From: a virus
Virus record (IMG/VR): IMGVR_UViG_3300025117_000049
Span: 1-64,000 of that record
Length of the DNA stretch: 64,000 nucleotides
Direction: 5' to 3' (one strand)
A model generated the notes under the pieces. That model did no database searches, was not told the DNA's origin, and was given only the letters and a program-made list of their open reading frames with translations. The position numbers were made by a program, and so were the translations under genes. This document shows positions 4,492 through 43,812 of this stretch, piece by piece (positions within the stretch are counted from its first letter, which is position 1; each line of letters begins with the position of its first letter).

Positions 4492-5891
4492 TAAATAACT
4501 CCTTTCAATATTTCTTCCCGGAAGTCTGGGAGGTTTTTGTCATATTTCCATCTGCGGCCGTGTTGGTCTATTCCTGCCGGTTCTATATGCGGAGCCCAGC
4601 TTGGGTGATAGGCATTGTTGCCCATGAGGTTCCAAAGCTCCTGGACCTCTATTTCCAGCTTGTTGCTCAGGAACCCACCACTATTGATCACATATGAGTG
4701 GTAGTCTTTCCATGATGTTGGAAGCAGGCCCCGGTCCATTATGAATCTAACCATGGGGACTATGCTGCCCATGTTCCACCGGCCCTTGAACCAATCCCCG
4801 ACATTACAACAAATCAGATCATCATTGGTGGGGACGTTACCCATGTCAAAAGTAGAACATTTCAGGCCCTCTGCCCGGAACAAATCCATGAACTTGCCAA
4901 GCAGGAGTGACCCGAGCCATTGACAGTCGCTCATCAAAGTGAACATGCGGGTGAAGTCATATCCCTGGCGGATAAAGGCCTGTCTGATGGTAGGGTTTTT
5001 GGCACTGTAGCTATATGTGTCAAAGGTGACATGGTTTATTCCAGCATCTTTTATGGCTTGGATATATTCTTCTGTTTTGGCCTGGTCATCATTTATGAAT
5101 ACCATGAAGGGTTCTATCCTGGCCACAACTCGGACTCCAGCCGAGGTCAGCTGTTTTGCTGCCCAGATGCGCCGGCTAAAAGGCGGTGCCCCAGGCTCCA
5201 GGTTTTTGTTGGTTTCATCATCTGAGGTGATCATGGTAATATGAACAGCTGCTTTGGCAAGGTTGTCTGAAAGCGGCCTGATATAATCTTCTCTGCCAAT
5301 CAGGTCTGATTTGGTGTTGATCATCACCGGATAGGCATTATCCCGAAGGTATTTCAACATGGATAGGCTGATGCCCTTTTTGGCCTCAATGGGCAGGAAA
5401 TCTTCAAACCTGATCCCGAAGCGCATTGGGATTTCCAAGCTGATGGCCTTGATTTTTTCATCTGCATTTTCTGACACTTGTTGGTCACGGTGCTTGAAGA
5501 GCTTGTCCAACTCTGCTTTGTAAAAATCTGGGTTGCAGTGTCTTAATCCGATGGACCGTGGGTTGTCAAAAAAACTGGTATAGAGTGAGGAGCGGAATGC
5601 ATCTGCGTAGCAGTAACGACAACCATAGCCACATAGGAGGCCGTCCCATACATCCAGGTTAAGCGGCATTGGGCATGCCTGGGCACGTAGGCTCACTTCA
5701 AGAAAACTGGAAACCTCTTCCGTATTGAGCAGGCGCTCCTGTTTCTCCCACTCTTGAGTCATAAGATTGAATTGATGGTAATTTTTTTTGCGCCCCTTTT
5801 CTTTTATTGACCCCTTGGAGTGGTCTGAAAGCAATTGGAGTTGCCTGGGGACCAGTTTTGAGACTACTGTTCTTAATTCCCAATAATTCAT
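4491..5891 (-). CDS. radical SAM protein, spore-photoproduct-lyase-like family
   Basis: CGYGCRYC (CxxxCxxC), INTKSD, LEPGAPP...GVRVVARIEP. Confidence 0.85.
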   Translation of the reverse strand: MNYWELRTVVSKLVPRQLQLLSDHSKGSIKEKGRKKNYHQFNLMTQEWEKQERLLNTEEVSSFLEVSLRAQACPMPLNLDVWDGLLCGYGCRYCYADAFRSSLYTSFFDNPRSIGLRHCNPDFYKAELDKLFKHRDQQVSENADEKIKAISLEIPMRFGIRFEDFLPIEAKKGISLSMLKYLRDNAYPVMINTKSDLIGREDYIRPLSDNLAKAAVHITMITSDDETNKNLEPGAPPFSRRIWAAKQLTSAGVRVVARIEPFMVFINDDQAKTEEYIQAIKDAGINHVTFDTYSYSAKNPTIRQAFIRQGYDFTRMFTLMSDCQWLGSLLLGKFMDLFRAEGLKCSTFDMGNVPTNDDLICCNVGDWFKGRWNMGSIVPMVRFIMDRGLLPTSWKDYHSYVINSGGFLSNKLEIEVQELWNLMGNNAYHPSWAPHIEPAGIDQHGRRWKYDKNLPDFREEILKGVI

Positions 5892-12031: not shown

Positions 12032-13552
12032 TTATAGCCCTTCCCTGATGAACTCAGAATCCACCACGGCCTGTCCCAACTCCAGGCATTGCAGGACCAT
12101 GGCCTTAGAGCTGCGCCGGTCATCCCGTTGGACGCTGGTGCCCACCCTCATCCTGAGCATACGTTCCTCATTTTCAGACTTGTCCAAAATTAGCATGCCG
12201 TCCACATCTCCCAGGATTTGCACCGACTCCCCAATGTCACTACCCTTCTTGGACTTGCGCTCGATGGCCGTCTTGCTCCCGGCCTGGAAGGGCATGACCA
12301 GCAGGGAATGATACTGCTGGGCCAGGGCTACGTTGTCCTGCCGGTTCTTGACTATGGCCATGCGGTCCTCGCCCCGGAAGCTCTGGAGGTCGGGACTGTC
12401 CACGACAATCACATGGGGCACGAATCCTTCCAGGTGTGCCCAGACCTCCAGGGTGGACCTGACCTCGGCCACCCCGGCGGACCGCATGGGCCAGTATTGG
12501 AACTTGAAGCGGGCACCCCGGAGCTGTCTGTCGGTTGCCTGTGCCCGCTTCCACGCTGCCCTCCATGCCGGTGGGCTTTTCTCAATCGGCACAGCCCATG
12601 TCTCCATCTGCCAATGATCTTGTTTCCTACAAGCAGCACAGGCCCGGTATCCCTGCGGCGCACGGGAGAAATGAGGCTGCTGGCCCTGGCCATCCAGTAG
12701 GGCCACCCGGTTGGTACGGTCGACCCTGGAGCAGTTGTTTTCCTGGTTCAGCCGACAGTCCCATACTGGCCACCATATCGGGCCAGACGGGGGTTTGAGT
12801 GGCACCCCAGCAATACCTTGGACGAACCGGCGAGTTTCCTTCCTGCGATTCATTTCAAAGGAGAATCGAGCCACGTTGAGGCCGGCATAGAGGGCCATGA
12901 GTTGAATGTACTGCACCATGTAGGACTTGCCGCCCTTGTAGTTGCCCACCAGACCCCAGGCATCTTCCCGGACGAACGGCCCAAGAAGGCGGCCCAGGGC
13001 ACCCGGCAGGGTGAACAGCTCGTCGTCGCCTTCGAATGCATCCCTTATGGCCCCCATGTCCTTGAGCGGCTCGCACCCAAGGGAAATTCCTTGACCAGGC
13101 CCGGTCCAGCGGGCCACAGCCTCCTCAGCGCCCAGCAGGTTGCCACTTGCAAGATGTCCATCTAAATCTTCTTTCAATAAGACTAAAGACCGTTCCTTGA
13201 AGAATATTATCGCTCGATCAAGAAGATATTCAGGATTTCCAACCTGTTCGTATTGTTCGTATTGTTCGCTTATAGATTCCAGAGTTTTTGCAATAAGCTC
13301 AGATTGATCAGAATCAAGTCCGTTCCGGCGATGGGCATCATAAATATCCCGTATATGTTGCTTTGGCGCCTGATCATAGATAGCTAAATAGTCTAAGCAC
13401 CATTTAGCACATGTTGCCATAAATGGAGTTGTAAAATATCTTGGTTTATAAATAACAGAAAGGCGGCGAAGAATCTTGTCATCTGTTATCATTCCAATAA
13501 GAACCGCTCTTTCTATGGAGAGATCAATGGTTTCTCTTTGCCAATTAACCAT
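12032..13552 (-). CDS. replicative DnaB-like helicase with Cys-rich insert
   Basis: Walker A GNYKGGKS, FSFEM, Walker B VIVVDSPD. Confidence 0.8.
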   Translation of the reverse strand: MVNWQRETIDLSIERAVLIGMITDDKILRRLSVIYKPRYFTTPFMATCAKWCLDYLAIYDQAPKQHIRDIYDAHRRNGLDSDQSELIAKTLESISEQYEQYEQVGNPEYLLDRAIIFFKERSLVLLKEDLDGHLASGNLLGAEEAVARWTGPGQGISLGCEPLKDMGAIRDAFEGDDELFTLPGALGRLLGPFVREDAWGLVGNYKGGKSYMVQYIQLMALYAGLNVARFSFEMNRRKETRRFVQGIAGVPLKPPSGPIWWPVWDCRLNQENNCSRVDRTNRVALLDGQGQQPHFSRAPQGYRACAACRKQDHWQMETWAVPIEKSPPAWRAAWKRAQATDRQLRGARFKFQYWPMRSAGVAEVRSTLEVWAHLEGFVPHVIVVDSPDLQSFRGEDRMAIVKNRQDNVALAQQYHSLLVMPFQAGSKTAIERKSKKGSDIGESVQILGDVDGMLILDKSENEERMLRMRVGTSVQRDDRRSSKAMVLQCLELGQAVVDSEFIREGL

Positions 13553-14345
13553 TGTTCACTCTTTCTTTTTTAATTTGTGCCCAATGCTTTTTTAAGGCCA
13601 CAGATAATTTTTGTCTTGTTTCTGGGGAATAAACTTTATTCTGCTGTGCTTGTCTAATTCTTTCTTTTGCCTCTTCGGTATGTCCACCTTTTTCTTTCCA
13701 TGCTTTTCTTGCTAAATTTAGTGTATTTTGTGAAGGCATTTGGCCTTTCTTTGCTTTTTTCATTTTTTCTATTGATTCTGGTTTATGTTTTCTCCCTTTA
13801 AAAGCCTGATTTCCTTTGTTTGCTCTGCCTATTTTTTCTTTTGTTTCTGGATGGCATTTCTTACCATAATTCCAACTATTTTCCCCTTTATGTTTTTCAC
13901 TCATTTTTTGTTTAGATTCTTCTGTATGAAACATACCCTTATGAATATTACTTAAATGCCTTTTACTTTCTTCTGACATTATTAATCCGCTACCACCTTC
14001 TCCACCATCAGTAAGGTTTGATAAACACCCAGTCTGTTTATTTATTCTTCCATACTGCTCAATAGCCGCTATTTCTAAGGCAAAAGAATCATCTTCAGAG
14101 AGACTAGATAAAATGATATCTTCCTCGAAATCTAATCCGTTTTTCCAAAGCTTATGAATAATTTTAACCTTAATTGATTTTCTTCCAGGCTTAATTAGTA
14201 ATTTTTCTGCTTCTTTACGATGATCAAATCTGCGACCATTTCCTGTCTTCCCCTTCCCTACATAAAATGGCTGCCATTTAGATTCGTCCATTGGATCGAC
14301 CTTATCTGGCCTACGCAGATAATAGAGATAGAAATTGTTAGCCAT
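13545..14345 (-). mobile_element. free-standing GIY-YIG-like homing endonuclease with NUMOD3-like repeats
   Basis: FYLYYLRRPDK...PFYVGKG, NLTDGGEG, HTEESKQKMS repeats; AT-rich. Confidence 0.85.
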
Positions 14346-14354
14346 TAACAATTC

Positions 14355-14492
14355 TCAAAAAATTGCCACGGACATATACCGTGGGCGGTAGGCCATGGCC
14401 AGTCGGCGCAGCACCCGGTCGCTGACTATGAGGCCGGTGACGATACGGCGCTCGACGCTAGTATCTATGGATTCTCGCTGCCAGGTCGTCAT
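14355..14492 (-). pseudogene. stranded 5' stub of the helicase gene (45 aa)
   Basis: MTTWQRESIDTSVERRIVTGLIVSDRVLRRLAMAYRPRY aligns with the helicase N-terminus MVNWQRETIDLSIERAVLIGMITDDKILRRLSVIYKPRY. Confidence 0.85.
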
Positions 14493-14746
14493 TGGATATT
14501 TTTCACAAACCTACAAGATTTAAGGCTAAAATATCCAATTTCATGAAATGGGCCGATTATCCAGGGTCTTTTACTATCTTGCTTAATTTCAGATAATTTA
14601 AAAGACCTTCCAGAGTAAAATTTATATTGTAGGTAAATATGATCTTCTTCAAAATCTATGCAGTATTGACCCTTGCCAATTCTATTTATAGTCCAAATTC
14701 GCCAACTAAATTGCTCGGCAACTTTTCTTAATTCGGCTTCAGTCAC
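14489..14746 (-). CDS. hypothetical protein (AT-rich)
   Basis: GGAGG RBS, GTG overlapping the deaminase stop. Confidence 0.55.
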   Translation of the reverse strand: MTEAELRKVAEQFSWRIWTINRIGKGQYCIDFEEDHIYLQYKFYSGRSFKLSEIKQDSKRPWIIGPFHEIGYFSLKSCRFVKNIQ

Positions 14747-15378
14747 GCTGTCCTCCTCAACCTGCGCCTGCTGGTGAATGGTTTCAATATTTCCTGAGCC
14801 AATTCTGTTGCCTGGCAACTCACCTCCAACTGCTCCATGGGCAGCAGTTCCCGGAGCCAGTCACTATCCGGATCATCATAATCAAGCTCAAAAAATACCC
14901 GGACAACCCCAGCCATCACCAGGATTTTTGTACAGGTTGCGCACGGGCGGGTGGTGCAGTAGAGAACAGAACCGGAGGTGGCCACTCCCAATCGGGCGGC
15001 CTGGGCCACGGCATTGGCCTCAGCATGGGATGACACGCAGGCCCGATCCTTCCTGGCATCCGGAATATTGGAAGCCCGGCGACGGCAATAGAGGATTTGG
15101 CCTGTGCCATGGCAGGCTGGGCAGGTTATTATTCTTTCTTCTATAGTTGGTGTAGATATTCGAATAGCCGAACATTTTCTAGTACCATTACAAGCAAGGC
15201 ATATAGATGGTTCTTGATTGCTGCAATGCTCCTGCCCCGGCAGTGCCCCATTATACCCGGTTGCAATAATGCGGTTGTCCCGCACCAGGACCGCTCCTTG
15301 TGGCCTGGAGTTGCAGGTGGAGCGCACTGCAGCCAGCTTGGCCTGCAAAAGATGATATTCATTCCAACTGGGGCGCAT
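14743..15378 (-). CDS. dCMP deaminase with inserted DnaJ-type zinc finger
   Basis: RSTC, ATGYNG, HAEANA, PCATC. Confidence 0.9.
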   Translation of the reverse strand: MRPSWNEYHLLQAKLAAVRSTCNSRPQGAVLVRDNRIIATGYNGALPGQEHCSNQEPSICLACNGTRKCSAIRISTPTIEERIITCPACHGTGQILYCRRRASNIPDARKDRACVSSHAEANAVAQAARLGVATSGSVLYCTTRPCATCTKILVMAGVVRVFFELDYDDPDSDWLRELLPMEQLEVSCQATELAQEILKPFTSRRRLRRTA

Positions 15379-16402: not shown

Positions 16403-16543
16403 TTACCGCCTCCAATGTTGTAGACTTATGATAAAAACTGCAAAAATCATTAATCCAGCGGTCGCTAAGCCCATGTAGATAGCAGAGGTTGAATCTGGGA
16501 TATTGTCGATCCAATCACACAACCGAAGAAATTCACTATACAT
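16403..16543 (-). CDS. small membrane protein
   Basis: AGGAGG RBS; single hydrophobic segment. Confidence 0.55.
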   Translation of the reverse strand: MYSEFLRLCDWIDNIPDSTSAIYMGLATAGLMIFAVFIISLQHWRR

Positions 16544-16615
16544 CAATAAGACCTCCTGATCCGTGGCTCCAGGCATTTCAGTTGTGGGCACCAGCATCCG
16601 TACCGGAGGATCACT

Positions 16616-17464
16616 TTATTCATATGCTATCCTTATTTTAGGTTTATAAAACCGACCTTTCGAATCTCTTTGTTTATTTTTTACTAATATTTTAGCATTA
16701 TCACTTCTAACCTTTCTTTCTTCATCACTATATTCCCTGCCATATTGATGGTTTTTCTCTCCTATTTGCGCGTCACTTATCTTCTTGCGAGTTTCTATAG
16801 AGCGTTTCTTTCCTTTATTTGACTTGCTGTTTTTATCTCTTGTTTCTTGCGACGGAGCAGGTCTATTTAGACCGACTATTCTCATTTTTTCAATAGATTC
16901 TGGTTTATGTTTTTTGCCTTTTCTATGTGATGGTCTCCCTTTTAACGCATTACTGATATTTATTAATGTTTCCGGAGAATGCGGTATGCCTTTGTTCCAA
17001 GGACAGTTTCCTAATAAAGAATTGCTTATTCGTTCTCTAACTTCAGGTGTCCTTACTTTACCTTTATTTCCCTTACTAATATTCTTTTTATGTTCGTCTG
17101 TGCAAATATAACCAGATATTCCTTCGCCGCCATTAGTGAGGTTAGTTAAACAGCCAGTATTATTATCTCTCCTTCCATAAGCATTTATAGCGTCCTGTTC
17201 TATTTCAAATGCTTCTTGTTCGGTAAGGTCTTTAAAGGCTATATCTTCTTCAAAATCTAACCCTAACCTCCAAAGTTTATGAATGATCCCAATTCTTAAT
17301 GGTTTTCTGCCAGGCTTTCCTGACAATAAAGTAGCTAATCGCCGATGCTCCTTAAATCTTTCATTATGGCCCTTTCCAATATAGAATGGCTGACTTTTCT
17401 CTGGCTCGAATTGATCGGGCTTATCCGGCCTTCTCAAAAAATATACATAAAAATTATTAGCCAT
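16616..17464 (-). mobile_element. free-standing GIY-YIG-like homing endonuclease with NUMOD3-like repeats
   Basis: FYVYFLRRPDK...PFYIGKG, NLTNGGEG, PWNKG; paralogue of 13545-14345. Confidence 0.85.
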
Positions 17465-17576
17465 TGTTTACGATTCTGGCCTTGGCGAAGTCAGACTCGG
17501 GATTGTCCCGAGCCAGTTTGGCGGCCAGGTCCAAGACCTCCTGCGGGGCATCCAGGTATTCTTGGTCAGCGCTCAC
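17457..17576 (-). pseudogene. 5' fragment of a small gene interrupted by the endonuclease
   Basis: GTG with GGAGG RBS; GC-rich until an abrupt AT shift; probable continuation at 16543-16623. Confidence 0.45.
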
Positions 17577-17830
17577 TCGATTATCCTCCCGCTGATCCCA
17601 CGCACATCCACGTCGGTGTAGACCTTGGCGGAGCCGATCACATATTGCTTCAGCTGATCTTCCATGCAAGTGATTTCCACGTAACCAGGTTCGATAGAGC
17701 GCACCAGCAGTCCGGTTTCCTGGGTGAACTCGTGAACTAGCGGCACGATCTTGGCAGCCAATTCAGTCTTTTTGAGCAGGATCATCTGATCCAGCGTGGC
17801 CAGTTTTTCAACCAGCTTTTGTTCCGGCAT
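17573..17830 (-). CDS. hypothetical protein
   Basis: GGAGG RBS, coupled ORF. Confidence 0.65.
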   Translation of the reverse strand: MPEQKLVEKLATLDQMILLKKTELAAKIVPLVHEFTQETGLLVRSIEPGYVEITCMEDQLKQYVIGSAKVYTDVDVRGISGRIIE

Positions 17831-21865: not shown

Positions 21866-21941
21866 TGGTGCGGGTGGTGGGACTCGAACCCACGGCTTCG
21901 TGCTCCCAGGGCACGCACTCTACCAACTGAGCTACACCCAC
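21866..21941 (-). tRNA. tRNA-Pro(UGG), atypical
   Basis: 76-nt cloverleaf: GTGGGTG/CACCCGC acceptor, GCTC-AGTTGGTA-GAGT D arm, CGTGC-CCTGGGA-GCACG anticodon arm, TTCGAGT T loop, encoded CCA. Confidence 0.9.
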
Positions 21942-36235: not shown

Positions 36236-36856
36236 ATGAGCCAAGATCATCCTTATATTCCAGCGACCAGGCCGGCCAGCAAGGAAGAGGCGGTCATGCT
36301 CTATGGCCCGTTTGTCGGTCACTGGGCCAACCATTATATGGCCAATTCCCCAGACGGTCTGCGTAACCTTGATGATCTGGTCCAAGATGGATGGTTGGGA
36401 GTCTTGGCCGCCTGGGATGACTATGATCCGGCTAGGGGCATGACATTCCGCACCTACGCTACATATAAGATTCGCTGGGCCATATTCAATGGCGCTAGGG
36501 AAATGGATAGAAATACAGCCCGTCTGTATGCGCAGAAGGTTCGGGGTACCGACAAGCCGGAGTATTATGCCCTGTTCAATCCTGTCAGACTGGATGACCC
36601 GCGATATGATGCTATGCAGGTTGCAGAGGAAGGCTCCAGTGCCCATGAGCAGACGGCCGCAGACGAATCATTCAGGGTCATGCTCTCCTTCATTCGCAAG
36701 CCCAGGATCAGGTGGGTCCTGGACCAGTATTACCGGGCCTGCCGTACCCTGAATGACATTGGGATTGACCTTGGGGTGTCCAGGGAGCGGGCGCGGCAGT
36801 TGTTGGTCCAGGGCCATGATGCGATCAGGACAAAACTGGAAAGGCAAAGAAAATGA
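36236..36856 (+). CDS. RNA polymerase sigma factor (sigma-70 family)
   Basis: DDLVQDGWLG...YDPARGMTFRTYA; TLNDIGIDLGVSRERARQL. Confidence 0.9.
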   Translation: MSQDHPYIPATRPASKEEAVMLYGPFVGHWANHYMANSPDGLRNLDDLVQDGWLGVLAAWDDYDPARGMTFRTYATYKIRWAIFNGAREMDRNTARLYAQKVRGTDKPEYYALFNPVRLDDPRYDAMQVAEEGSSAHEQTAADESFRVMLSFIRKPRIRWVLDQYYRACRTLNDIGIDLGVSRERARQLLVQGHDAIRTKLERQRK

Positions 36857-36963
36857 TTTTTTATGTTTATTGCCTTCGTAGGCCAGATAAGGCAGACCTA
36901 TTTGATCCAGCTAAAAACCAACCTTTTTACATAGGTAAGGAATCTATCAGGATAGCCTATTAA
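36853..36963 (+). pseudogene. internally deleted relic of the GIY-YIG-like endonuclease family (36 aa)
   Basis: MIFYVYCLRRPDKADLFDPAKNQPFYIGKESIRIAY. Confidence 0.8.
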
Positions 36964-40538: not shown

Positions 40539-40685
40539 ATGGCTGCCAACCCCACCCCATTGAAGAAACCGACCGCCCATGGCGCCCAGGTGTCCAACAT
40601 TTTGGAACTCATGGCCAACTCCGCCATCCTGACCCGTGCCCAGCTCGCCTCCAACCTGGGGCTTGCTTTCGGCGGGAAAATTTGA
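40539..40685 (+). pseudogene. stranded 5' stub of the portal gene (48 aa)
   Basis: HGAQVSNILELMANSAILTRAQLASNLG vs portal YGAKVNNIFELAAYSAILGRAQLASVLG; AGGAG RBS. Confidence 0.85.
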
Positions 40686-40688
40686 CCC

Positions 40689-41618
40689 ATGGCTAAGAGA
40701 ATTGCCTATGATACTCCTGCTCCAAAGCCTCAGTGTCAAGATTCCTTGAGAACAGATTTCTATCTCTATTTCTTGAGGCGGCCCGATAAAATCGATCCTC
40801 TTGATCTGTCCAAGGGTCAGCCATTCTATGTCGGCAAGGGCTGTAATGGGAGAGTTGGAGGGCATAGAGTCGAAGCGAGAAGCTTATTGCATAAACCTGG
40901 TAGAAAATCACATAAAATTAATATCATTCATAAACTATGGAAACAAGGTTTAGATTTTCAGGAAGATATTATTCTTAACTGCTTATCAGATGATGATGCT
41001 ATTGCTTTAGAAATTGCTGCTATCGAACAATATGGTCGTAAAGACAATGGCACAGGTATATTGGCCAACCTGACTGATGGTGGAGAGGGAGTATCTGGGC
41101 GGTTAGGTTTAATTATGACTTCTGAAGCAAAAGAGAGAATGAGAGTAGCAAAATTAGGCAAAAAATTACCTCCATTTTCAGAAGGACACAAAGAGAAAAT
41201 AAGACAAGCCAATTTAAGGGAAAATCTTTCTCCGGAAACTCTTGAAAAGAGAAGCAAGGCCCATTTAGGAAAAAAACTTACGCCAGAACATGTAGAAAAA
41301 ATGAGACAAACTCTAAAGGGGCGTAAACGTTCTCCAGAAGCAGTTGAAAAAACAAGGCAAGCAAATTTAGGAAGACCTTGCTCTCCTGAGAAAAAAGAGA
41401 AGCTAAGACAAGCCAACCTCGGAAAAAAACATAGTCCAGAAAGAATCGAAAGAAATAGACAAATCCAGCTTATAGTGCAAAATACCCCAGAGGCAATAGA
41501 AAGAAATAGACAAGCTCATTTAGGAAAGAGACACACTCCTGAAACAAAAGAGAAGTTAAGACAGATTCAATTGTTACGCCGCCAGCGAGAAAGGGAGGCC
41601 AGGAATGGCAGTCAATAA
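40689..41618 (+). mobile_element. free-standing GIY-YIG-like homing endonuclease with NUMOD3-like repeats
   Basis: FYLYFLRRPDK...PFYVGKG, NLTDGGEG, many S/TPE..EK.RQA.LG repeats. Confidence 0.85.
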
Positions 41619-43812
41619 AAAGAAAGAATATGGAGCTAAGGTGAATAATATTTTTGAATTAGCTGCTTATTCGGCTATTCTTGGAAGAGCACAGTTAGCT
41701 TCTGTTTTGGGACAATCTTTTGAAGGGTCACGCGATATTTACCAAGCACTGGGATACGATACTCAGATTTCATGGCAACAATATGTGGGTCAATATGCTA
41801 GACAAGGTTTTGCTAAAGCTGTTATCGATCGCCCTGTTGCTTCTACATGGGGTCGAGGCTTTCAGTTAGTCGAGGCTGGCGATGATGAAGAGACACAATT
41901 AGAAAAGGCCTGGAAAGACCTGGAAAAACGCTTGGGCATGATCTCTATGTTTTCCCGTTTAGATCGTCTTGCAGGATTGGGCACTTATGGCATATTATTG
42001 TTAGGTTTGTCTGATGTGTCTACTCCACAGGACTTCCGCAAGCCAACAACGGGCCGAAGCCTTCAGCTCAAGTATGTTAAACCATTCTCGGGCATGGCTA
42101 ACGAAGGGGATGCCCAAATACAGACTTGGGTTACAGATCCATCTAATGAGCGCTACGGTCGTCCGGAACTATACAGCGTTACCCTTCGCAATCTATCCAC
42201 TGGCGATTCTCAGATATTGTCTATTCATTACAGCCGAGTGATTCATGTAGCCGATGGATTAGGCAGCTCTGAGATCGAAGGTACGCCGCGTCTTGAATCA
42301 ATTTTTAACAATCTCAAAAACCTAGAGAAGATCACTGGCGGTTCGGCAGAGATGTACTGGCGTGGTGCCCGTCCCGGCTATGGTCTGGAGGCTGACAAGG
42401 ACTTCCAGATCACCGATGCGATCCTGGAGGATTTGCAAGGCCAGCTTGATGAATTCGAGCATAACCTGCGGCGTGTCCTGGCCCTACAGGGCATGAAAGT
42501 CAATCCCATGGCCCAGCAGGTGGCGGACCCGGCCTCAGCCGTGGACGTGCAGATCCAGGAGATATCGGCCACCACGGGCATTCCCAAGCGCATCCTGACC
42601 GGCAGTGAGCGTGGCGAGCTGGCCTCCAGCCAGGACCGGGAGAACCAAGCGGACTATATCGAGGACCGCCAGCTGAACTTTGCCGAGCTCAGGATCATCA
42701 GGGCCACGGTGGACAGGTTCATCGAGTTGGGCATCCTGCCCCCGGCTTCCACCGAAGAGGGGTATTCCATCCAGTGGCCAGACACCCGGGAGCCCAGCGA
42801 TAAGGACCGGGCTGATGTGGGCAAGGTCCGGGCCGATGCCATCAAGAGCTATGCTTCGGCGCCCACCGCAGAGGCAGTCATGCCTATCCAGTCGTTCCTC
42901 AGGTTGTGCCTTGGGCTCACAGAGGATGAGATTGTTCTGGTTGAAGAGGAAAAGGCGGCTGTCCAGGCAGAGGAGGAAGCTGAGCAGGCTCAGATGACAG
43001 ACGAAGAGCGAGCCGCCCAGGAAGCTGAGGAGGCTGCTGCTGAAGCTGAGACTAAAAGACAGCAAAGAGAAGAAGTACCTGTAAACCCTAATCAGCCTGT
43101 GGTTCAATCCAATCCATGTCATAATCCAGCTGGTTCTGCGGGAGGTCAATTCTGTACAACTCCTGGCGGTGGTAGCAACAAGGAGCTTTCTGGCAAAGAA
43201 AAAGAATCATTAGTAGCATATCAGCGGACAAATTACCCTGAAGTGAATGGACATCTACGTGGAACCATGAATCTTCATCGCGATGATAAGGCTATAATCA
43301 ATGATTATATTAAGAATCTTGATAGTATCTTTAAAAAAGCAAATGAAGTTGAAGTGAATGTTTTTCGTGGTACTGATGCCGAGTTTACAAGAGGTATTTT
43401 TGAGAAGACAGGGATCCTAAAGGAATTGAAAGGAGCAAAAGTTGAAGGCATCACGAATAGTGATAAGCCGCCTGCGGGGTTTTCCACCTGGGATAAATAT
43501 TTCAATGCAAGATTGAGCGGCACGACCTTCCAGGACAAAGGATTCACTTCTACATCGAGTAAGGAAAAAGTGACCAAGGGATTTGTAAGCCGTCGCTATG
43601 AAGATCCCAGAAACGGGGTGTCTTCTATTTGCAACATCCGGGGAACAGCCAAGGCCATTGATATGAATAAGACCACCGGAGACAAGGTGTTCCGTGATCA
43701 GCACGAGATGCTTCTGAATCGGGGCAATACCTATCGTATAGACAGTGTTAAGGTAGTCCGGGATAACTCGATAAACAAAAGCTATCTGAAGTTTAATGTC
43801 TCTATAATCTGA
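41605..43812 (+). CDS. portal protein (DUF1073-like) fused to a C-terminal VIP2-type ADP-ribosyltransferase
   Basis: YGRPELY, IHYSRVIH, GIPKRILTG...GELAS; C-terminal VFRG...GFTSTS...QHEMLLNRG. Confidence 0.85.
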   Translation: MAVNKKKEYGAKVNNIFELAAYSAILGRAQLASVLGQSFEGSRDIYQALGYDTQISWQQYVGQYARQGFAKAVIDRPVASTWGRGFQLVEAGDDEETQLEKAWKDLEKRLGMISMFSRLDRLAGLGTYGILLLGLSDVSTPQDFRKPTTGRSLQLKYVKPFSGMANEGDAQIQTWVTDPSNERYGRPELYSVTLRNLSTGDSQILSIHYSRVIHVADGLGSSEIEGTPRLESIFNNLKNLEKITGGSAEMYWRGARPGYGLEADKDFQITDAILEDLQGQLDEFEHNLRRVLALQGMKVNPMAQQVADPASAVDVQIQEISATTGIPKRILTGSERGELASSQDRENQADYIEDRQLNFAELRIIRATVDRFIELGILPPASTEEGYSIQWPDTREPSDKDRADVGKVRADAIKSYASAPTAEAVMPIQSFLRLCLGLTEDEIVLVEEEKAAVQAEEEAEQAQMTDEERAAQEAEEAAAEAETKRQQREEVPVNPNQPVVQSNPCHNPAGSAGGQFCTTPGGGSNKELSGKEKESLVAYQRTNYPEVNGHLRGTMNLHRDDKAIINDYIKNLDSIFKKANEVEVNVFRGTDAEFTRGIFEKTGILKELKGAKVEGITNSDKPPAGFSTWDKYFNARLSGTTFQDKGFTSTSSKEKVTKGFVSRRYEDPRNGVSSICNIRGTAKAIDMNKTTGDKVFRDQHEMLLNRGNTYRIDSVKVVRDNSINKSYLKFNVSII

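Follow-up and report, generated by a model that had tools for sequence, protein, structure and literature searches.

How a homing endonuclease gene (HEG) can come to lie inside the coding region of an essential phage gene, with that gene left complete, is the question raised by the replicative helicase locus of a viral genome, IMG/VR record IMGVR_UViG_3300025117_000049. We analysed positions 1 to 64,000 of this record, a stretch that we call the window and whose numbering is used here; the full contig is a 96.8-kb genome. On the minus strand of the window a GC-rich fragment of the helicase gene start, here called the stub, is followed by a HEG, HEG1, and then by a complete helicase gene. This order had been described in a first-pass annotation made from the sequence alone, and we find all three pieces where it placed them.

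A chimeric helicase gene and its displaced start

The stub is an open reading frame (ORF) of 45 codons at 14355..14492 (-). Its helicase homology is limited to 14368-14492, and its last four codons and TGA derive from the junction with HEG1. The stop codon falls inside a spacer of 22 nucleotides (nt) at 14346..14367 (-), mapped against two relatives, L001 and L002, which runs from the end of the stub homology to the endonuclease ATG; the TGA stands 9 nt ahead of that ATG. HEG1 (13545..14345 (-)) is a free-standing homing endonuclease gene of the GIY-YIG and NUMOD3 type, encoding 266 amino acids from the ATG. Its ORF spans 13545-14351; translation probably begins with the ATG at 14345, which yields an N-terminus, MANNFY, like that of a paralogue. 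The HEG1 stop codon, TAA, overlaps codons 2-3 of the helicase gene (ATGGTTAA). The full helicase ORF (12032-13552 (-), 506 amino acids) matches PHROG 19, DnaB-like replicative helicase, with an E value of 3e-17, and more distant helicase homologues carry Pfam PF03796. Along the locus the GC content at third codon positions (GC3) is 0.76 in the stub, 0.24 in HEG1, 0.27 in helicase nt 1-405 and 0.73 from nt 406 to the end. The stub and residues 1-41 of the window's helicase are 51% identical (tblastn E 2e-14) and about 60% identical in DNA, with the DNA differences mainly at third codon positions.

Relatives without the endonuclease explain this arrangement. In L001 and L002, both IMG/VR contigs, a dCMP deaminase gene, a DUF3850 ORF and the helicase gene follow one another with no HEG, and a stub-like 5' end runs straight into the GC-rich part of the helicase gene, which is what had been predicted for endonuclease-free relatives. 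The stub (14491-14368) corresponds to nt 2-125 of the L001 helicase gene with 86% nucleotide identity, and window 13204-12041 corresponds to nt 343-1506 with 85.5% identity. In a base-by-base alignment with L001, identity jumps at helicase nt ~406 (window ~13147), from about 55% over nt 1-405 to about 85% downstream, so that the turn from AT-rich to GC-rich codons noticed earlier near 13150 is also a switch in ancestry signal. Nothing in the window corresponds to L001 nt 126 to about 405; that position is taken by the 22-nt spacer, HEG1 and a complete, about 55%-identical copy of nt 1-405. The same break is seen in protein comparisons with P0001, the closest database relative, to which helicase residues 117-506 are 95.9% identical and residues 1-116 only 47.8%. 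The stub is 92.7% identical in amino acids to the P0001 N-terminus, as against 49% for the window's own helicase start. Endonuclease-free alleles therefore match the stub (86% in nucleotides, 93% in amino acids) and not the AT-rich start (about 55% and 48%).

Separate phylogenies of the two helicase parts had been proposed as a check, and the maximum-likelihood trees disagree. In the C-terminal tree the window helicase is sister to P0001 with 100/99 support and a branch of 0.033, while in the N-terminal tree it stands alone on a long branch (0.59) inside a wider clade. None of the 15 related helicase loci (L001, L002 and 13 further loci) has a HEG or a composition step, and a search of GenBank phages found nothing that matches the helicase. 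These comparisons show that the helicase gene is chimeric, its first 405 nt foreign and the remainder native, and that the native first 125 nt of the gene persist as the stub. On GC3, identity and tree position, the replacement is the AT-rich 5' end with codons 1-135, in frame (13148..13552 (-)), and the native part comprises the GC-rich codons 136-506 (12032..13147 (-)). Every residue invariant in the family is retained in the replaced N-terminus, which is therefore a working domain.

We found no sign of splicing at this locus. Rfam at gathering thresholds identified only a tRNA and no intron in the window (the tRNA gene, RF00005, is at 21869-21941 (-), 64.7 bits), and in 12900-14700 there was no match even at E 1. 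The helicase gene is a single uninterrupted ORF of 506 codons that aligns end to end with its relatives, from residue 1, and is as long as they are (506 versus 504 amino acids), with no intein-sized insert and no gene split. As the downstream helicase is complete and no splicing element is present, the stub is redundant rather than an exon. The proposal that the element invaded the gene without intron or intein, carrying in a divergent gene start, agrees with these results.

Some features of the junction region may be mentioned here. An AT-rich ORF (14492-14748 (-), GC3 0.26) with no family match lies between the dCMP deaminase gene and the stub, in the slot that the DUF3850 ORF occupies in L001 and L002. 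This makes the GC-rich stub an island of 125 nt with AT-rich DNA on both sides. Exactly at the stub/HEG1 junction, at 14366-14384 (-), lies a hairpin (CCACGG...CCGTGG) with a T run behind it, and a second small hairpin lies just ahead of the HEG1 ATG (fold z -2.1). These hairpins could damp HEG1 expression. The three stub/HEG junctions described in this paper share no RNA structure, only the helicase junction folding better than shuffled sequences, and that weakly (z -2.1), and terminator-like sites in the junction region are no more frequent than in shuffles.

A second chimeric gene at the portal locus

The layout had been said to recur at the portal gene, and there, on the plus strand, a stub, a HEG and a chimeric portal gene are found. 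The portal stub (40539..40685 (+), 48 codons, with homology to ~40676) is followed by HEG2 (40689..41618 (+), 309 amino acids as listed), a GIY-YIG endonuclease gene identified by Pfam and by its identity to its paralogues, and by the portal gene itself (41605-43812 (+), Pfam PF06381). At both loci stub, HEG and full gene are chained through adjacent or overlapping stop and start codons. The portal comparison is based on protein sequences and on a more distant locus, L006. The portal stub is identical to the N-terminus of P0038 at 45/48 residues (94%), as against 63% to the window's own portal start, and along the window portal the identity to P0038 is 67-86% in the first ~280 residues and 92-100% thereafter. 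GC3 is 0.80 in the stub, 0.25 in portal nt 1-300, 0.47 and 0.45 in nt 301-780 and 0.72-0.80 in nt 781-1440. From GC3 and identity, the foreign, AT-richer 5' part covers about codons 1-260 (41605..42385 (+)) and falls into two tiers of composition (nt 1-300 and nt 301-780). These data show the portal repeating the helicase design, with about 780 nt replaced and the native 5' end displaced into the stub.

The portal region may also have a longer history. The first eight codons of HEG2, MAKRIAYD, read like a start codon region joined to the C-terminal RIAY end of an earlier copy similar to HEG3 (HEG3, the third paralogue, is described below); the RIAY C-terminal motif is also found in HEG3, in a relic at 36853 and in the family member of contig L008. 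This relic within HEG2, together with the three composition tiers of the portal gene, suggests that the portal 5' region is the result of two nested invasions, a reading that we hold loosely. After MAKRIAYD in HEG2 (40689-40745 (+)) comes TPAPKPQ, with a faint likeness to the portal N-terminus.

The portal protein also has a C-terminal ADP-ribosyltransferase domain (Pfam PF03496, 6e-19; 43050-43812 (+)), encoded in an AT-rich segment and absent from a close portal relative of 500 amino acids in L006. A motif, NPCH(N/D)...G(Q/R)FC, followed by a Gly/Ser linker, heads AT-rich domains in or beside head proteins; it occurs at window 39742, 43108, 44209, 44860 and 46210, and also in L006.

Further copies in the genome

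HEG3 (16616..17464 (-), located by blastn to L001) lies inside the gene for a phage metallopeptidase of family PF18894, where it replaces 237 nt mid-gene and leaves metallopeptidase fragments at 17472-17606 and 16543-16614. Both junctions are clean: window 17569-17472 corresponds to L001 546-643, and window 16614-16504 to L001 881-991. L001 has this gene in intact form (Pfam on its ORF), and because HEG3 brought no replacement copy the metallopeptidase gene of the window is broken. An insertion with a target deletion of about 237 nt is what would be expected for break, resection and repair. The HExxH-type region of the metallopeptidase lies inside the deleted part. A fourth endonuclease copy survives as an internally deleted relic of 36 codons (36853..36963 (+), tblastn 67% over 27 amino acids), consisting of the N-terminal 28 residues plus a C-terminal IRIAY; Pfam places it between a sigma-factor (sigma-70-like) gene and a 5'-3' exonuclease gene.

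We scanned the whole 96.8-kb genome for N-terminal duplicates upstream of ORFs of at least 120 amino acids. Only two real duplications were found, those of helicase and portal, each immediately beside an endonuclease gene of this family; what had seemed to be a third stub, at ~86.1 kb of the genome, proved to be a spurious low-complexity ORF. The left junctions of the three HEGs, at 14368, 40676 and 17472, lie 125, 138 and 135 nt past the start codons of three unrelated genes and 3-22 nt from the HEG start, and each stub ORF stops beside or overlapping the HEG ATG. No common target motif is evident at the three insertion points.

The endonuclease family

HEG1 matches Pfam NUMOD3 (9e-22) and LEM-3_GIY-YIG (3.6e-6) and PHROG 314, homing endonuclease (1.8e-18). 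The NUMOD3 repeats, a separate C-terminal DNA-binding module, are also recognised by Pfam in HEG3 (1e-19) and HEG2 (5.5e-5), and the three window copies are 48-53% identical. Residues of catalytic type are invariant among 18 family members (Y6, Y8, F27-Y28-x-G30-K31-G32, R38, E91 and N110), H42 being nearly so. The two GIY-YIG motifs are about 20 residues apart in this family. The classic spacing is shorter, at 10-11 residues.

A sequence search of the PDB with HEG1 found no match. An AlphaFold model of HEG1, made from an alignment of the 18-sequence family, has a predicted local distance difference test score (pLDDT) of 88-97 over residues 1-110. With this model Foldseek gave weak matches only (PD-T4-3, E 4e-3), and the fold was settled by VIA-align, in which residues 4-113 align with the I-TevI catalytic domain 1ln0_A over 89/92 residues (Z 9.8, root mean square deviation 2.6 Å). 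The next VIA-align matches are all GIY-YIG folds: PD-T4-3 (Z 8.8), T4 EndoII (Z 7.2) and the UvrC N-terminal domain (Z 6.3). HEG1 is thus predicted from its model to have the GIY-YIG alpha/beta catalytic fold.

In other phage contigs, several family members have a gene directly downstream of them. An ATG is overlapped or immediately followed by the HEG stop codon (ATGnnTAA or ATGnnTGA) in HEG1, HEG2 and HEG3 and in the contigs L008 (4692-4699), L011 (~4825-4834) and L016 (~4860-4867), and this ATG opens a long downstream gene in HEG1, HEG2, L008 and probably L011. Where the HEG stop is shared with a downstream start in this way, the 3' end of the HEG and the first codons of its neighbour are inseparable by recombination. 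The layout had been taken for a strategy of this endonuclease family. The portal repeat and the position of HEGs upstream of genes favour this idea; HEG3, which brought no replacement, goes against it, and none of the 28 family members tested in other phage contigs has a stub upstream (0/28), so that the combination of stub and HEG is not shown to be general for the family. The phage contigs with these other members are uniformly AT-rich, with ~40% GC.

How the arrangement may have arisen

The explanation that we consider likely is intronless homing, in which a HEG coming from an AT-rich donor took the donor's gene start along by co-conversion and was joined illegitimately on its upstream side. 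The free-standing HEG would have passed into this GC-rich phage through double-strand-break repair, during a mixed infection with an unsampled AT-rich relative whose gene order was [gene X][endonuclease][helicase]; the AT-rich contigs in which family HEGs lie directly upstream of genes fit such a donor. The enzyme would have made its cut in the part of the resident helicase gene that is now missing, between nt 126 and 405. The downstream end may then have been repaired off the donor helicase gene, with a crossover at nt ~405, just past the conserved block KERSLxLLKEDL, and synthesis would have run on through the donor gene start and then the HEG. The upstream side would have been sealed illegitimately 125 nt into the resident gene, because there was no homology there, donor and resident phage having different upstream neighbours. 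From its divergence, about 45% of its bases differing from L001, we infer that the foreign helicase start is resistant to cleavage. Seen in this way, the stub appears to be a by-product of a homing event that met no homology upstream. Once formed, it could serve as an upstream homology arm of 125-138 nt, a role that the 3' fragment has in yeast WHO elements (see below), and stub, HEG and new start could then spread by two-sided homing.

Several points weigh against this explanation. HEG1 would have to be an active enzyme that targets the replaced segment. No donor came to light: none of our comparisons gave the AT-rich helicase start a relative that exceeds 57% identity, and searches of IMG/VR, of a set of 5.8 billion proteins with residues 1-118 and of a set of 1.84 billion representatives gave hits at most 55% identical. 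Either the donor lineage is unsampled or the helicase-start segment is evolving fast with the cassette. HEG1, too, has no close relative in IMG/VR or in metagenome contigs. Many AT-rich patches of the genome, for example the ORF at 14492-14748, have no HEG nearby, and mosaic recombination therefore occurs here without HEGs. The evidence comes from a single genome; a second one with HEG1, the AT-rich start or the stub was not found, for which sampling may be the limit. Lastly, the regular depth and spacing of the three left junctions is not predicted by random illegitimate joining.

It is possible, although we hold it only tentatively, that the stub is a working part of a homing unit and not a mere scar, with stub, GIY-YIG gene and resistant start moving together. 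The stub would then be an upstream homology arm whose translation feeds the endonuclease by coupling, and the near-constant insertion depth (125, 138 and 135 nt) would be set by the mechanism. The orphan, long-branched helicase start would then hint at an arms race.

Ordinary phage mosaicism, with the AT-rich block gained by illegitimate or short-homology recombination without enzyme cutting and the HEG as a passenger, seems to us improbable. The genome is indeed a patchwork of segments of 30-40% and 55-65% GC, many of them far from any HEG, the slot upstream of the stub has also been swapped (AT-rich ORF for DUF3850 ORF), and the downstream crossover just past a conserved protein block is of the kind seen at many mosaic joints. 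Chance exchange does not account for the fact that both N-terminal duplications of the 96.8-kb genome abut a HEG of one family, nor for a third HEG inserted equally deep into another gene, and HEGs at the edges of exchanged tracts are a known sign of nuclease-driven exchange (PMC10448857).

A chimeric contig, in which an assembler mixed reads of related AT-rich and GC-rich phages, is very improbable. Related phages can co-occur in one sample, as L001, L002, L006 and L013 all come from one metagenome (3300037424), and the helicase crossover does lie just past a conserved block. Against this, the stub/HEG junctions have no common sequence able to mislead an assembler, a switch of assembly path produces no duplication of a gene start, the reading frames are all open across the junctions, and the design is present at two loci, beside a clean third insertion and a decayed relic. 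Least credible of all is that the stub is a first exon or split-gene piece joined by RNA splicing, protein splicing or ribosomal bypass: short unannotated N-terminal exons beside HEGs are known in phages, for example in the ICP1 terminase gene (PMC10448857), but here the downstream ORF already encodes a full N-terminus with all invariant residues, the stub duplicates residues 1-41 instead of completing the protein, and there is neither an Rfam intron at E 1 nor room for an intein (506 versus 504 amino acids).

Comparison with known homing systems

Homing from an AT-rich donor with replacement of the gene start has its closest parallel in the WHO elements of Torulaspora and Lachancea yeasts; in Torulaspora they home into FBA1 and replace its 3' end with a resistant allelic variant, the old 3' end being kept as a fragment that serves as a recombination site (Coughlan et al. 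2020, PMC7282813). WHO elements have been described as a third category of homing element beside introns and inteins, 'considerably more rare' than these; phages go unmentioned in that account (Osborne et al. 2026, bioRxiv 10.64898/2026.08.13.744650). As in WHO elements, a HEG lies beside an essential gene, one end of that gene is replaced by an allelic variant without splicing, the displaced end is kept as a fragment beyond the HEG, the host gene is a chimera with discordant trees, and relics are stacked by repeated invasion. In mirror image of WHO, it is here the 5' end that is replaced and not the 3' end. The WHO enzyme is an intein-derived LAGLIDADG zinc-finger protein, related to HO, whereas the enzyme here is of GIY-YIG/NUMOD3 type; the setting is a phage genome and not a yeast nuclear chromosome, and translational coupling links the pieces into a chain. 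For WHO, cleavage and resistance have been demonstrated; for HEG1 both are presumed. Judging by its modelled fold, the HEG1 element is WHO-like in design and not a member of the WHO protein family. If the stub should prove to be a working part, the unit of stub, HEG and gene start would be a prokaryotic-virus counterpart of WHO elements, acting at the 5' end.

In the mitochondrial atp6 gene of Allomyces macrogynus an endonuclease insertion brought a foreign gene end and so produced an in-frame hybrid (Paquin, Laforest and Lang 1994, as cited in PMC4019555), and similar C-terminal duplications are outlined for fungal mitochondrial genes such as rps3 (Sethuraman et al. 2009). What the atp6 case has in common with ours is an endonuclease insertion that added a foreign gene end in the correct frame; it differs in concerning the C-terminal end of an organelle gene, whereas our two cases involve the N-terminal ends of a replication gene and a virion gene of a phage. 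The Allomyces atp6 endonuclease is reportedly of GIY-YIG type, and the original gene end is said to survive as a remnant.

Among phages, the free-standing endonucleases SegB, SegF, SegG and MobE of T4 carry out intronless homing (PMC2330249, PMC2790892, PMC2988022), and one-sided homing with resection and illegitimate microhomology joins has been reported in T4 (Parker et al. 1999, as cited in PMC2988022). These systems resemble ours in having a free-standing GIY-YIG HEG next to its target gene, co-conversion of flanks, presence or absence among relatives and illegitimate joins. In T4, however, both flanks are homologous, there is no duplicated fragment and the HEG stays intergenic, whereas here the insertion is 125-138 nt inside the gene and a stub is left. 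The MobA/gene 60 cassette of T4-like phages deletes 55-75 nt of an essential target and carries a homologous replacement (Bonocora et al. 2011; bioRxiv 10.1101/2022.08.31.505936); the replacement region holds the former cut site, and insert-free related genomes exist (Manning and Atkins 2022, bioRxiv 10.1101/2022.08.31.505936). It is likewise a phage HEG cassette with target deletion and homologous replacement, but with MobA the split topoisomerase gene yields two polypeptides and ribosomal bypass is required, whereas here the gene is in one piece, with an N-terminal domain replaced (135 residues, or ~260 in the portal), and no recoding is needed. In the literature searched, which covered journals in part and included no search on the exact design, we found no description of gene-end replacement at the 5' ends of phage genes. 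The published cases concern 3' ends, in a yeast nuclear gene (WHO) and in fungal mitochondrial genes.

Consequences for phage genes and their annotation

With endonuclease-free alleles for comparison, our results show a route by which a homing endonuclease can reside inside essential phage genes, here those of the replicative helicase and the portal, without intron, intein or recoding. Replacement of a gene start makes chimeric essential proteins, the whole N-terminal domain of the helicase being just 48% identical to the native one, and is for that reason a direct cause of mosaicism and of conflicting trees for phage marker genes. The locus also offers a testable system, with one enzyme, a susceptible allele of the L001 type and a presumed resistant allele. 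The design also misleads gene callers: for each of the two chimeric genes, databases hold nothing but a 5'-truncated product. These entries for the window's own proteins are P0007 for the helicase, with 295 amino acids, and P0036 for the portal, with 684; in both, automatic annotation apparently chose an internal codon as the start, and the truncation removes all of the foreign start of the helicase and part of that of the portal.

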